Below are positions 18,991 to 22,233 of a DNA stretch of 64,000 bases, in pieces; position 1 is the first letter of the stretch; each line of letters starts with the position of its first letter. The notes under the pieces were generated by a model. That model was not told where the DNA came from and ran no database searches. It saw nothing but the letters and a program-made list of their open reading frames with translations. This DNA is from an uncultured Bacteroidales bacterium (GTDB taxonomy: Bacteria > Bacteroidota > Bacteroidia > Bacteroidales > G3-4614): assembly GCA_949297125.1 (NCBI GenBank), contig CASFRS010000027.1:1812-65811 (forward strand). Direction: 5' to 3'. The translations under genes and the position numbers were made by a program.

Positions 18991-21426
18991 TCAGCGGATG
19001 TTGGCAATACTGATGATGTCGGCAAATACTCCCGCTGCCGTAACCGAAGCTCCGGCCCCGTATCCTTTTATAACCATCGGGTATTCCTTGTAGCGTTCGG
19101 TGGTTATCAGTATTACGTTGTTGCTCCCCTCCAGCTGGTAGAACGGGTGCGTGGCATCTACGGCCTGCAACCCCACGCTCATCTTCCCGTTGTCCAGTGA
19201 GGCTATGAAGCGGAGACGTTTGCCCTGTGCCGCAACTTCCCTGCGTCTGGCCTCGAACTCTTCGTCCAGACCCGGAATCTTTTCCCAGAACTCGTCGAGC
19301 GAGCCGGCAAAAAGTTCGTCCGGGATGAACAGGTGTTTCTCTACGTCCGACTGCTCGGCGACATACCCCGATTCCCGGGCCAGGATAACCAGTTTGCGGA
19401 TTACGTCCTGGCCGTTCAGGTCGAGGCGCGGGTCGGGTTCGCTGTAACCCGCCTCCTTTGCCATGCGTATCGCCTTGCTCAGAGGGATTTCTTCGCTCAG
19501 CGTGCTGAATATGTAGTTCAGCGTGCCCGATACCACCGCTTCGATGCGCAGTATCTTGTCCCCGCTGTTTATCAGCCCGTTTATAGTGCTTATTATCGGA
19601 AGCCCTGCTCCCACGTTGGTTTCAAAAAGATACTTGACATCCCTTTTGCGGGCCGTCAGCTTTAGGGCGGCATAGTTCTCGTACGATGACGATGCGGCTA
19701 TCTTGTTGGCTGCCACAACCGAAACGTTATGTTCGAGCAGTTCCTTGTAGATGCTTGCAATCTCGGCGCTTGCCGTGCAGTCGACAAAAACCGAGTTGAA
19801 GATATTCATCTTTATCACTTCGTCGCGGATGGTGTCGGCCGATGCCGCAAGAGGGGAGTTTTCAAGCAGTTCGTTGTAGTTGTCGAGCGATATGCCGTCT
19901 CTGCTGAATACGCACTTGCGCGAGTTGGCCAGCCCTACTATGTTCAGTTTGAGCGATTTGTCCCTCAGGAGGTTGGGCTGTTGCTGCCTGATTTGCATAA
20001 GCAGGTCTTTCCCTACCGTACCTATGCCCGTTATGAACAGGTTAAGTTCCTGTGCGTCCGACAGGAAGAACGAGTCGTGAATGACGTTCAGTGCCTTGCG
20101 CAGGCTTCCCAGCTCTATTACGAACGATATGTTGGTCTCCGAGGCCCCCTGGGCGCAGGCTATTACGCTTATGCCGTTGCGTCCCAGAATGTTGAACAGC
20201 TTTCCGGCGATACCGGGCGTGTGTTTCATGTTCTCGCCCACTATGGCGACGGTGGCAAGGTTGTGTTCGGCCTGGGCTTCGCAGATTTCGCCCATGGCTA
20301 TTTCGCGTTCAAACTCCTTGTTCAGCACCGATACGGCAAGTTCGGCATCGGCATTCCTTACTGCAAACGATATGTTGTTTTCCGATGCCGCCTGCGAAAC
20401 GAGGAATACGCTGACTCCCGATTTTGCCAAAGCGTTGAATATGCGCGAGTTTATCCCTATTACGCCAACCATGCCCAGTCCCGAAACCGTAATGAGGCAT
20501 GTGTCGTTTATCGATGAGATGCCCTTTATGGCCTTGGCCTCCCCGTCGGGTACTTTTTCCGTTATCAGCGTACCGGGAGCTTCGGGCTTGAACGTGTTCT
20601 TTATGACGATAGGGATGTTTTTGTGGTATACGGGGTATATGGTGGGCGGGTAAATCACCTTTGCGCCGAAGTTGCACAATTCCATCGCCTCTACAAACGA
20701 CAGCCGTTTGATAACGTACGAGGTCTTTATCGTGCGCGGGTCGGCCGTCATGAAGCCGTCCACGTCCGTCCAGATTTCAAGAAGCGAGGCGTTCAGTACC
20801 GATGCAAGTATAGAGGCCGTGTAGTCCGACCCTCCGCGCCCGAGGTTGGTTACGTCGCCGTTCTTCTTGTCCGACGAGATGAACCCCGGCACTACCGACA
20901 CCTTGGGGAGTTCGGTAAACGTGGAACGGACAAGCTCGCCTGTAGTCTCGAAGTCGACAATGTTCTTCCCAAACTGGTTTACGGTTTTTATAAAACGCCG
21001 CGAATCGAAAAGGACGGCATCCTTTATGATATTGCTTATTATGAACGATGAAAGCCGTTCGCCGTAGCTTACTATAGTATCGAGGGTTTTCTGCGAGAGA
21101 TCCTTGATAAGCGATACCCCGCGCATTATGTTGCCCAGTTCCTCCAGCAGGGCGTCGGTGTTTTCCAGTACCGAGCCGCGTATTTCCGGGGCGACGGCCC
21201 TGTCGATGACATCATGGTGCCGCGAAGCGATATACTCCATTATCTCCGTGTACGCACGTTCGCCTTTTGCGGCGGTTTTTGCACATTCAATAAGCTTGTC
21301 GGTAATGCCGCCGAGTGCCGATACGACAACTATGCACTCCTCATCGCGGCTTTCAACTATGTTTTTTACGCTTTTAATACTCTCGGCAGAGCCGACCGAA
21401 GTCCCTCCGAATTTAAGTACTTTCAT
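18991..21426 (-). CDS. thrA: Bifunctional aspartokinase / homoserine dehydrogenase I
   Basis: KFGGTSVG, LGRGGSDY, WTDVDG, two ACT domains, GIGTVG, ETNVGAGLP, GYGAGASVTA. Confidence 0.97.
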   Translation of the reverse strand: MKVLKFGGTSVGSAESIKSVKNIVESRDEECIVVVSALGGITDKLIECAKTAAKGERAYTEIMEYIASRHHDVIDRAVAPEIRGSVLENTDALLEELGNIMRGVSLIKDLSQKTLDTIVSYGERLSSFIISNIIKDAVLFDSRRFIKTVNQFGKNIVDFETTGELVRSTFTELPKVSVVPGFISSDKKNGDVTNLGRGGSDYTASILASVLNASLLEIWTDVDGFMTADPRTIKTSYVIKRLSFVEAMELCNFGAKVIYPPTIYPVYHKNIPIVIKNTFKPEAPGTLITEKVPDGEAKAIKGISSINDTCLITVSGLGMVGVIGINSRIFNALAKSGVSVFLVSQAASENNISFAVRNADAELAVSVLNKEFEREIAMGEICEAQAEHNLATVAIVGENMKHTPGIAGKLFNILGRNGISVIACAQGASETNISFVIELGSLRKALNVIHDSFFLSDAQELNLFITGIGTVGKDLLMQIRQQQPNLLRDKSLKLNIVGLANSRKCVFSRDGISLDNYNELLENSPLAASADTIRDEVIKMNIFNSVFVDCTASAEIASIYKELLEHNVSVVAANKIAASSSYENYAALKLTARKRDVKYLFETNVGAGLPIISTINGLINSGDKILRIEAVVSGTLNYIFSTLSEEIPLSKAIRMAKEAGYSEPDPRLDLNGQDVIRKLVILARESGYVAEQSDVEKHLFIPDELFAGSLDEFWEKIPGLDEEFEARRREVAAQGKRLRFIASLDNGKMSVGLQAVDATHPFYQLEGSNNVILITTERYKEYPMVIKGYGAGASVTAAGVFADIISIANIR

Positions 21427-21633
21427 AAAATTTCCCGGTTTAGTTATGGGGGGAAGCGGAAGAGTCGCTGAATTCCGGATAATACTCTGCTTTTCCCCGT
21501 GTATGTTCTAAAAATGCCTGCAAATCCCGGCCTCCCCGGCAGTACAGCGGAAACCGCTTTGCAGATTCTTGAAAATATCGCCGTCTTCATCGGGAACAGG
21601 CCTGTTTCCCGTATAAGGCGGAAGACGGAAATG

Positions 21634-21663
21634 AAAAAACACGCAACCCCCTAAGGGGTGGCG
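21634..21663 (-). terminator. Attenuator terminator of thr operon leader
   Basis: Minus strand CGCCACCCC-TTAG-GGGGTTGCG-TGTTTTTT, about 210 nt upstream of the thrA ATG. Confidence 0.75.
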
Positions 21664-21710
21664 GTCTGCACGGCAGTCAAAAAGAGCGTATTAAAAAACG
21701 AGGCTCCCAT
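21651..21710 (-). CDS. Putative thr operon leader peptide MGASFFNTLFLTAVQTATP (19 aa)
   Basis: ATG..TAG read manually; four Thr codons (ACG, ACT, ACC, ACC); stop codon lies in the terminator loop. Confidence 0.7.
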   Translation of the reverse strand: MGASFFNTLFLTAVQTATP

Positions 21711-21734
21711 AGTTATCCGAATAAATTACTCTTA

Positions 21735-21928
21735 TGCAGCTTGTTTCTGCAGTTCTACGGCAAAGATAATGCAAACGGGGGCAGAGACAAACCGTAAGGT
21801 TCGGCTATGCCGAGTGCAGCTTATTTTCGCCGTTCTACGGCAAAGATAATACAAACGGGGGCAGAAACAAACCGTAAGGTTAGGCTATGCCGAGTGCAGC
21901 TTATTTTCGCCGTTCTACGGCAAAGATA
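21735..21928 (-). repeat. 80-bp tandem repeat (about 2.4 copies), each full copy carrying a TTTG-N19-TATCTTTG promoter
   Basis: GTTCTACGGCAAAGATA at 21752, 21832 and 21912; units 21752-21831 and 21832-21911 differ at 3 of 80 positions. Confidence 0.95.
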
Positions 21929-22233
21929 GTAAAAAAATGCAACACCTGCTTATATGGCGCATTATATTTTCATCCTCTCTTGTCGCTTCCGTTTTCGCCG
22001 CAACCCGCCTGGCAGGGTTCGTGCCGCAATGGAAGCCTTTTCGTGCCCCCCGCTCTCCCTTCGTCGCCGTAAAACACGGTACCGGCGGGAGGTGTGGCGG
22101 CAAGGCTGCGCCGGTATGAAAAAACAATCCGGGACGTTCGCCTGTTATTGTCGCGTACGGGTTGTTCCCTGTCCGGAATATTTGTCCATATTATAAAAAA
22201 TAAGAAAAAAACGCCTTGTATTTGAAAAAAGTG

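Follow-up and report, generated by a model that had tools for sequence, protein, structure and literature searches.

What controls the thrA / apgM-like / thrC operon of an uncultured Bacteroidales bacterium (G3-4614; assembly GCA_949297125.1), and what is the short open reading frame that precedes it? The locus lies in a 64,000-nucleotide (nt) stretch of DNA (contig CASFRS010000027.1, positions 1,812-65,811; hereafter the window) from a genome of 2.14 Mb, here called G000. An initial annotation of this DNA had proposed that an upstream open reading frame (uORF) between promoter and thrA encodes a threonine leader peptide whose stop codon sits in the loop of a terminator hairpin. We found that the uORF belongs to a widespread and previously undescribed family of Bacteroidales leader peptides with codons for Thr (plus Met/Ile), and it is very probably a Thr-responsive leader of the operon, whatever the mechanism. 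The reading as a threonine leader peptide is supported by the reading frame, the codon bias, the conservation of the hairpin and the linkage to thr genes. The element itself comprises the following features:

21651-21710, minus strand: leader uORF of 19 codons plus TAG, MGASFFNTLFLTAVQTATP, read from the sequence and with homologous uORFs in relatives.
21646-21659, minus strand: P1, core hairpin ACCCC-UUAG-GGGGU, from RNAfold and a terminator scan, present once in the genome.
21634-21667, minus strand: T1, that is P1 extended by CGC/GCG and outer pairs and overlapping T6, with a predicted intrinsic-terminator shape.

The uORF runs from an ATG at 21710-21708 to a TAG at 21653-21651, and contains four Thr codons (ACG at 21689-87, ACT at 21677-75, and ACC at 21665-63 and 21659-57); reading of its 19 codons found no Ile codon and no internal Met. 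Minus-strand reading thus gave the sequence, the four Thr codons and the absence of Ile exactly as first annotated, and four Thr in 19 codons are weak evidence taken alone. The candidate sensing codons are T16 (21665-21663) and T18 (21659-21657). Both had been described as overlapping the 5′ arm of the hairpin, and this holds in full for T18, which lies inside the arm, and only in part for T16, which contributes its last C. In the window the 5′ arm of P1 consists of the last Thr codon and the Pro codon, and the stop codon falls in the loop, as had been claimed: the inverted repeat CGCCACCCC (21663-21655), loop TTAG (21654-21651) and GGGGTTGCG (21650-21642) is followed by TG and T6 (21639-21634). 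The core ACCCCTTAGGGGGT (21659-21646) was reported by a simple terminator/consensus scan, P1 was present in both the minimum-free-energy and the centroid structures of RNAfold, and the 14-nt core pattern ACCCCTNNGGGGGT has a single occurrence in the 2.14-Mb genome. The extended hairpin (21667-21637) has a predicted free energy of -16.4 kcal/mol and is followed by 8 nt of which 6 are U; T1 has the shape of an intrinsic terminator, a G+C-rich stem overlapping T6 at 21639-21634.

Close strain variants of the locus were found in RNA libraries. Parts of the stretch are contained in 13 runs, of which four RNA-library runs (two studies) were examined, in all cases as assembled contigs and not as raw reads. 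In the contigs of all four, codon 17 is ACC (Thr) through a C-to-T change at 21662, and the peptide ends in QTTTP before the stop. Since the same change (G-to-A) weakens the extended stem, a Thr codon was gained at the cost of one stem pair. One contig per run spans 20900 to approximately 21782-21789 unbroken and ends inside a multi-copy 80-nt repeat. As assembled sequence, these contigs bear neither on the TSS, nor on a 3′ end at 21634, nor on expression levels, and the lack of coverage upstream of about 21925 carries no meaning.

The conservation of the element was assessed in several collections. ThrA was searched in 151 genomes sampled evenly across the order, of which 55 gave a match at E ≤ 1e-100. 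Upstream DNA was taken for 50 of these; the start-codon pattern missed two loci (L057 and L068), which left 48 usable regions, one of them (L027) with only 52 nt of upstream sequence. A hairpin made of a C-run, a 4-nt loop and a G-run lay within 400 nt of thrA in 20 of the 48 regions, and ThrA identity to the window among these 20 loci ranged from 46% to 100%. Under a strict definition of a Thr-rich uORF, 11 of the 48 regions contained one, against 1 in the reverse complements and a mean of 0.7 in shuffles. When the pattern ACCCCTNNGGGGGT was searched in 401 genomes of the order, 69 genomes matched. Loops TTAG (20) or TTGG (16) are carried by 36 of the matches, and 31 of these lie just upstream of threonine-pathway genes: 27 precede thrA by 60-240 nt, three a GHMP-kinase (thrB-like) gene and one an apgM-like PhosphMutase gene; the remaining five are unrelated. 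Other loops (TTCG etc.) mostly belong to ordinary hairpins elsewhere, with three exceptions that head Thr-rich uORFs, namely TGCG (G135), TGTG (G365) and TATG (G241). The G241 leader, MTTTTTTTTPMGV before its stop, precedes a divergent aspartokinase gene (27% identity over residues 1-162, E 8e-17).

A scan of named records by ThrA alignment added 80 loci, 79 of them with usable upstream DNA. The hairpin pattern occurred in 40 of the 79 and, once a false positive (L177) was removed, 39 credible leaders remained, from Coprobacter, Barnesiella, Parabacteroides, Tannerellaceae, Bacteroides (including B. xylanisolvens, B. ndongoniae and B. gallinaceum), Phocaeicola, Mediterranea and Prevotellaceae. 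No leader was found in the sampled Muribaculaceae, Rikenellaceae/Alistipes, Cryptobacteroides and Paludibacteraceae, or in the AT-rich record titled Caccoplasma. Among 11 other species of the genus, two share the arrangement with TAG in the loop of the same hairpin: G001 (96% ThrA identity), with the homologous uORF MGAFCLNTLFSTAMRITTP, and G008 (86% ThrA identity), with MKSISLHTFFIPSAVITP. The distance from the uORF stop to the gene start varies between 60 and 272 nt across the family. The check that had been proposed, an alignment across Bacteroidales of the frame, of the Thr codons with their synonymous variation and of the hairpin, was strongly positive across many families.

Two side observations concern the loci themselves. 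In L003 (G008) a second, tandem leader-like element, MKERENRIFTQIINIGFTTS, lies about 136-73 nt upstream of thrA and ends at an AACC-UCUUA-GGUU mini-hairpin. At L090, L102/L089, L103 and L120, a Thr leader with the hairpin stands before other pathway genes (thrB-like GHMP kinase, apgM-like PhosphMutase, divergent aspartokinase). The leader before an apgM-like gene supports the view, reportedly reached by high-throughput genetics in B. thetaiotaomicron, of that gene as a threonine-pathway enzyme; as a marker, the leader can improve operon and pathway annotation, flagging for instance the apgM-like gene as a member of the pathway.

The codon signal was analyzed on the aligned leaders. An ATG-initiated uORF with at least two Thr codons ending at or just after the hairpin was found at 38 of 41 unique hairpin loci; the exceptions were L070, which has no frame, and L028 and L109, in which the longest frame is not Thr-rich. 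A hairpin-anchored profile was built from 37 sequences, leaving out L028, L070, L035 and L036 for their variant cores. It revealed a three-base periodicity before the hairpin, with A at position -1 in 37 of 37 sequences, at -4 in 31, at -7 in 33 and at -10 in 24, and C or T at -3, -6 and -9; the wobble positions -2, -5, -8 and -11 were essentially uninformative (information content 0.02-0.29 bits). As read from these sequences, the pattern is that of ACN (Thr) codons with some AUN (Ile/Met). For codon counts, two collections were pooled without de-duplication into 77 leaders, from which 37 representatives at no more than 62% identity were drawn. Thr accounted for 49% and Met for 14% of the last six codons in the 77 leaders, with all four ACN codons in use, and Thr for 52% in the 37 representatives; the A at -1 is a first codon base in 72 of the 77. 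Extreme Thr runs occur in STTTTTTTTTTTP, MTTTTTTTTPMGV, ITTITTTTTTTTP and HITTTTTTTPAGV, each followed directly by the stop. In Phocaeicola the leaders abound in Met as well as Thr (e.g. one ending in RMWTMTTTTTMMTPRG), and these Met codons fit the fact that the ThrA enzyme also feeds methionine. The sensing of Thr alone, as first proposed, suits the window, and does not extend to the relatives, which mix in Met and Ile codons. As in leader-peptide attenuators generally, codons for the end product are thus enriched with free third positions, more weakly in the window (T-A-T-P; T-T-T-P in the strain variants), and the short frame lies between promoter and first gene.

The hairpin is conserved along with these codons, independently of how it is decoded. 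Depending on lineage and frame it encodes T-P-stop, T-P-W-G-V-stop, T-L-R-G-stop or M-P-L-Q-G-V-stop, and in L035 and L036 the frame differs and the hairpin is kept, which indicates a constraint at the RNA level. The lengths of C-run and G-run co-vary (3C with 4G in 13 of 13, 5C with 5-6G; r = 0.52, n = 77). The position of the stop codon inside the loop holds for the window and is not a conserved property: it applies to 23 of the 77 leaders, and in the others the frame crosses the hairpin and stops 0-13 nt beyond. A peptide block (Y/H)(Y/T)TWAL(T)MTPWGV with only 2-3 Thr is conserved in Parabacteroides, Tannerellaceae and Prevotellaceae (L136, L139, L142-L144, L150, L152-L154, L159, L160 and L166), beyond what sensing alone needs.

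These data bear on the simplest alternative, that the uORF has no regulatory role and is either a chance frame beside an ordinary hairpin or a small protein with its own function. The window peptide by itself is mildly Thr-rich, and conservation of the YYTWAL(T)MTPWGV block could hint at a role of the peptide; against this stand the conservation of codon phase with wobble positions free, the nearly complete difference of the peptides between lineages apart from Thr/Met and the hairpin-encoded end, and the exclusive linkage to threonine-pathway genes. We consider this alternative highly improbable.

The surroundings of the element agree with its placement as a leader. The promoter and the operon are as follows:

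21761-21768, minus strand: promoter-like -7 box TATCTTTG, read from the sequence.
18991-21426, minus strand: thrA (aspartokinase/homoserine dehydrogenase), 811 amino acids, with AA_kinase, ACT and Homoserine_dh domains (Pfam).
18902-17688, minus strand: apgM-like gene, second in the operon (Pfam).
17675-16368, minus strand: thrC, third in the operon (Pfam).

The uORF is located 224 nt upstream of thrA and downstream of the TATCTTTG box, so that the leader does sit between promoter box (21768-21761) and thrA start (21426), with the uORF at 21710-21651 in between, and Pfam bears out the proposed order thrA / apgM-like / thrC for all three genes. The consensus of the promoter -7 element is TAnnTTTG. 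By analogy with the mapped thrA (BT_2403) of B. thetaiotaomicron, the transcription start site (TSS) in the window would be at approximately 21754, some 6-7 nt past the box. In that species the primary TSS of BT_2403 (aspartokinase/homoserine dehydrogenase) lies 5 nt after TACTTTTG and leaves a 224-nt 5′ untranslated region (UTR), in three growth phases; the maps further place a secondary TSS 10 nt before the gene (Ryan 2020 suppl. file 3; Ryan 2024 suppl. file 8). A small open reading frame (sORF), sORF_00195, MKYYPHTVTSMCTMTLWG before its stop, starts 35 nt past this TSS and is listed as an uninterpreted ANNOgesic candidate (Ryan 2020, PMC7366714, supplementary file 5). It ends at an ACCC-UUU-GGGU hairpin and is a homologue of the window uORF.

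Several side observations were made on the promoter region. The TATCTTTG box lies within an 80-nt unit present in 2.5 tandem copies of 83-91% identity (window 21735-21935, both strands), and the repeat gives three successive TA..TTTG boxes. The unit has 67 matches genome-wide, often in tandem arrays of 2-5. RNA-library contigs stack on it (depth 100-400 vs 8-24 alongside) and branch to many flanks. It is a dispersed intergenic repeat family that may carry promoters.

As to how the leader would act, we tentatively favor a ribosome occlusion of P1/T1 that is gated by release. A ribosome translating the uORF would sense charged tRNA-Thr at the last Thr codons, which are also the 5′ arm of P1. With Thr in short supply, it would dwell on T16/T18 (T16-T18 in the QTTTP variants) and keep the 5′ arm single-stranded; P1, or in the window T1 with T6, could then not fold behind RNA polymerase, and read-through would result. 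With Thr plentiful, the ribosome would reach the loop stop and leave, or would never catch up, and P1/T1 would fold and cause transcription to pause or end at the U-rich tract. The model supposes that polymerase lingers in the U-tract until a ribosome that has not stalled can terminate and come off. When ribosome masks were applied in equilibrium folding, the pairing probability of P1 was 0.99 for free RNA or with the ribosomal A-site at T12, and 0.00 with the A-site at T16, T18 or TAG. That a footprint on T16/T18 abolishes P1 and one on T12 does not was counted in favor of occlusion. So were the canonical shape of T1, a hairpin with U6, and the failure to detect another sequence that would pair with the freed G-run or with terminators further downstream.

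The first rival explanation is classical attenuation, in which P1 would be the 1:2 protector/pause hairpin, and the freed 3′ arm or the tract would form a lineage-specific antiterminator against a terminator further downstream (T2 and/or T3 in the window, see below; hairpins 30-90 nt downstream elsewhere). Complementarity of the freed G-run was at chance level, both to the next 45 nt (-3.94 vs -4.21 in shuffles) and to the whole leader (-6.21 vs -6.43). In 10 of 41 leaders a strict scan found at least one hairpin plus U-run site past the G-run, which favors the classical arrangement; the same scan did not flag T1 in the window. When ribosome masks were placed at each Thr codon of 10 leaders, the downstream terminator was barely altered in seven, was raised in two (L039 and L115), which is the wrong direction for this model, and its stem never formed in one (L120). 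Four short leaders with 60-79 nt between stop and thrA (L034, L104, L067 and L062) have no second strong hairpin. No mutually exclusive antiterminator was thus detected by duplex and equilibrium tests in the window and the 10 modelled leaders, in agreement with the initial annotation, which had dispensed with one; such tests consider equilibrium folding and duplexes only and miss kinetic traps, and since they would also miss the antiterminator of E. coli trp, they are weak evidence against the classical model.

Other evidence comes from the RNA on either side of P1 and further downstream, where these features were recognized:

21625-21645, minus strand: pyrimidine/U-rich tract after P1, UGCGUGUUUUUUCAUUUCCGU; candidate 3′ strand of a helix P0 and, in the window, terminator U-tract (alignment, duplex prediction).
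21685-21720, minus strand: candidate 5′ strand of P0, covering the uORF initiation region including the AUG and first codons (duplex prediction).
21571-21628, minus strand: T2, composite hairpin CCGUCUUC...GAAGACGG (21628-21581) with tail CGAUAUUUUC (folding prediction).
21508-21564, minus strand: T3, hairpin CUGCAAA...UUUGCAG (21564-21518) with tail GCAUUUUUAG (folding prediction).

Most hairpins of the family are just ACCCC/GGGGU, with 5 base pairs and -7 to -9 kcal/mol. After the G-run, the 37 profile sequences conserve a U at +1 (36 of 37), a mixed spacer of about 7 nt and a U-rich tract at +8 to +14 that often ends in CC, with approximately 59% T vs approximately 35% further downstream. 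A 5-base-pair hairpin with a U-rich tract 8-14 nt downstream has the geometry of a pause hairpin, as classical attenuation would expect. The tract also pairs with the start region of the uORF. In the window this P0 duplex (21720-21685 with 21645-21625) reaches -12.5 kcal/mol, the best of 24 upstreams tried against this 3′ strand. Over all leaders, own pairs averaged -8.56 vs -6.92 ± 0.36 kcal/mol for swapped ones, and none of 200 swaps reached the real mean; for 24 lineage representatives the values were -8.12 vs -6.84 ± 0.45 kcal/mol, with 12 of 5000 swaps reaching it. About half of the lineages have a strong P0, which frequently covers the AUG, and in Bacteroides it takes the form ACUAUCC:GGAUAGU with one compensatory change, U-A to C-G. 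The signal required the 23-nt tract, as a P0 confined to the 12-nt spacer was not significant (1123 of 5000 permutations). In 11 Bacteroides leaders, RNAalifold recovered only P1 and one small hairpin, a poor yield explained by too little variation among them. The excess of P0 over swapped controls and its compensatory change show that alternative pairings exist, which speaks for the classical model, as do three two-sided compensatory changes between G000 and G001 in the inner hairpin of T2 (21626-21604). Against it, folding predicts T2 (P 0.83-0.97) and T3 (P 0.41-0.96) whatever the state of the ribosome. At the T3 position G001 has, by eye, a different stem, GUCCGCA...UGCGGAC, which RNAalifold did not call. 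Taking both sides together, we regard classical attenuation as unlikely. With T2 and T3, two more hairpins with U-rich tails between P1 and thrA, the one-hairpin design is not supported in its original form.

Two further features of this part of the leader were observed. A second ORF of 48 codons (21590-21444, minus strand), MKTAIFSRICKAV...RLFRFPP, opens with an AUG located within the 3′ arm of T2 and stops some 20 nt short of the thrA ATG; at the matching position, G001 has an ORF with, by eye, a similar C-terminal part. A C6 run at 21453-21448 is the best leader-wide partner of the P1 G-run (-11.8 kcal/mol).

The composition of the leader raises the possibility of Rho-dependent (or NusG/NusA-assisted) termination, in which the G-poor, C/U-rich leader RNA would be a Rho loading site and P1 would hold polymerase at the U-rich tract, a parked ribosome would block Rho and a released one would leave the RNA naked. 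Ribosome-controlled Rho attenuation is an established kind of regulation, as in tnaC, where a stalled ribosome blocks Rho, and in mgtL. C/U-richness and strong depletion of G (G in 1-8 of 37 sequences at most positions) mark both the tract after the hairpin and the 36 nt that precede it, most members of the family have no canonical intrinsic terminator at P1, and the short leaders offer just a long G-poor, U/C-rich stretch past P1. In the uORF, however, G-depletion follows automatically from ACN/AUN codons, and a ribosome stalled upstream of the tract would leave the downstream RNA as naked as a released one. Moreover, the three intrinsic-terminator-shaped hairpins of the window make Rho unnecessary there. 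This explanation appears quite unlikely.

Finally, ribosome occupancy might act post-transcriptionally, by controlling stability or processing of the mRNA, or P0 might limit the uORF to one round of translation, with termination unaffected in either case. Sequestration of the uORF AUG by P0 in several lineages would fit, and so would a long-range helix of 14 pairs between 21733-21714 and 21481-21460 (minus strand), both blocks of which are kept in G001. The stop-to-gene distance of 60-272 nt argues against direct translational coupling, the long-range helix occurs in two close relatives only and without two-sided changes, and the constant spacing between P1 and the U-rich tract suggests an action on polymerase. 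We judge a purely post-transcriptional role to be very unlikely. As a structure in its own right, the long-range helix pairs AAGAGU plus UUCGGAUA with UAUCCGGA plus ACUCUU and connects RNA 5′ of the uORF start to RNA just 5′ of thrA, and its two blocks count among the sequences best preserved between G000 and G001.

Several observations weigh against the locus being a threonine leader or against P1/T1 being its switch. The window leader is Thr-poor, with 4 Thr in 19 codons and only the terminal T-A-T-P. The leader is lacking in eight AT-rich congeners (L004-L011; ThrA 82-83%), in which the thrA start was recovered and a TATATTTG box precedes thrA by about 45 nt, with nothing but a small GCAC...GUGC hairpin in between, which implies that the leader was lost or replaced inside one genus. 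The RNA contigs are continuous from thrA through the leader and, being blind to 3′ ends, give no support for termination at 21634. The canonical terminator shape is unique to the window: within 8 nt of the (extended) hairpin, 6 U occur in 1 of 41 leaders, which is the window, 5 in three and at most 4 in the rest, so that none of the other 40 has 6. The claim that the hairpin is a terminator consequently holds as to shape for the window and not beyond it, and any single family-wide mechanism is not a simple terminator of hairpin plus U-tract. An extension of P1 by its flanks toward the U-tract was likewise rejected as a family feature (-2.72 in real vs -2.70 kcal/mol in swapped leaders), the window extension (-9.0 kcal/mol) being an outlier and the strongest of 37 leaders. 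A ribosome on the stop codon masks P1 just as a stalled one does (P1 = 0.00), so that occlusion requires RNA polymerase to wait at the U-tract until release. Finally, T2 and T3 are predicted to form regardless of the ribosome, and if they were efficient terminators transcription would stop anyway. As to the waiting polymerase, small protector hairpins of E. coli leaders stabilize pauses about 10 nt downstream (PMC9291695); a small hairpin with a U-rich tract about 10 nt on resembles such hairpin-stabilized enterobacterial pauses, which makes the dwelling of polymerase plausible. Typical terminators have been reported for Bacteroidota (PMC13613805).

On the side of occlusion, the most far-reaching version would be a minimal, antiterminator-free and release-gated single-hairpin switch for the supply of Thr (Met/Ile) across Bacteroidales, the main human-gut genera among them. 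Its hairpin would be the near-invariant C4/G5 one, and its sole variable the time for which a ribosome covers the 5′ arm as polymerase dwells at a U-rich tract about 10 nt on. In this version pairing of the start region with the tract would allow one reading per transcript and the same design would probably lie behind Bacteroid-trp and other leaders; we consider this generalization possible and rather doubtful. The apparent absence of a classical antiterminator bears on transcription-translation coupling in Bacteroidota, whose ribosomes largely ignore Shine-Dalgarno sequences.

To our knowledge, leader-peptide attenuation, though a standard of the textbooks, has been described almost exclusively in Proteobacteria; for Bacteroidota, Rfam contains one such leader (trp) and transcriptome papers offer hints only. 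The present work defines a second Bacteroidota leader-peptide family, which is easy to recognize, occurs in Bacteroides, Phocaeicola, Parabacteroides, Barnesiella, Coprobacter and others, and precedes genes of threonine synthesis (and of homoserine synthesis for methionine). In B. thetaiotaomicron, a model gut bacterium, it supplies an interpretation for an orphan sORF and for the unannotated 224-nt 5′ UTR that contains it, and it would offer a ready-made amino-acid-responsive control element for the engineering of gut Bacteroides.

The element was compared with known systems. An Rfam scan of window 21300-22200 at E ≤ 10 returned chance-level matches only (rpfG, FuFi-1), with Thr_leader (RF00506) and Bacteroid-trp (RF01692) unmatched, and at the loci of eight relatives no family reached the gathering score. 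No description of a Bacteroidetes thr leader was found by full-text searches of the literature; older computational surveys, by Vitreschak et al. in 2004 (FEMS Microbiol Lett) and Lopatovskaya et al. in 2010 (Mol Biol), reportedly mention Bacteroidetes/Chlorobi attenuators and may list one. The remark in the initial annotation that it knew of no described Bacteroidales thr leader is hence in line with both Rfam and the literature, apart from the uninterpreted B. thetaiotaomicron sORF entry. The main text of Ryan 2020 (PMC7366714) notes that some long 5′ UTRs hold sORFs “reminiscent of leader peptides”, and does not contain “threonine”, “thrA” or “BT_2403”; the main text of the Ryan 2024 atlas does not contain “attenuat”, “leader”, “threonine” or “sORF”, and the BtModulome paper has no relevant passage.

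Within the phylum, leader peptides have been listed for Flavobacterium psychrophilum upstream of ilvE (Ile-rich) and hisG (His-rich) (PMC9723704, supplementary file 8). They resemble the present family in lying upstream of amino-acid operons; they differ in lacking the hairpin motif, and a thr leader is absent from the list. The Bacteroid-trp motif (RF01692; Weinberg 2010, PMC2864571) is likewise a uORF before a cognate biosynthetic operon in the same phylum, and in the model consensus its regulatory codons, UGG UGG, form part of the 5′ arm of the conserved hairpin; it differs in amino acid, operon and hairpin, and its model misses the thr leader. The sole Bacteroid-trp-like site in the window genome (G000:C22:9000-9122, minus strand; L121) scored 27.6 bits vs a cut-off of 49, and an in-genome comparison was dropped, this sub-threshold match elsewhere in the genome being the only one.

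The enterobacterial thrL leader (RF00506) offers another parallel in function, being a short Thr(/Ile)-rich uORF between promoter and thrA (see PMC9291695). Both are read as sensors of charged tRNA that set the read-through of the operon, and the mixture of Thr with Ile/Met in our relatives parallels the Thr/Ile of thrL. Unlike thrL, the present leader has no sequence or structure match to RF00506; its sensing codons double as the 5′ arm of a very small, near-invariant C-run/G-run hairpin with the stop in it or just after it, and a 2:3 antiterminator was not detected. In the pyrBI operon of E. coli, the leader frame (pyrL) enters a single terminator hairpin, and a close ribosome prevents its folding without any antiterminator. 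The occlusion reading would work in the way of pyrL, with two differences: pyrL senses UTP through polymerase pausing, whereas an amino acid would be sensed here through codon stalling, and a slowed ribosome leads to more termination there, whereas stalling on the arm must give less here. With sensing codons that form one arm of a mini-hairpin, a stop codon at that hairpin, a start region that pairs with the tract and no detectable antiterminator, the architecture of the family departs from the four-segment attenuator of the textbooks.

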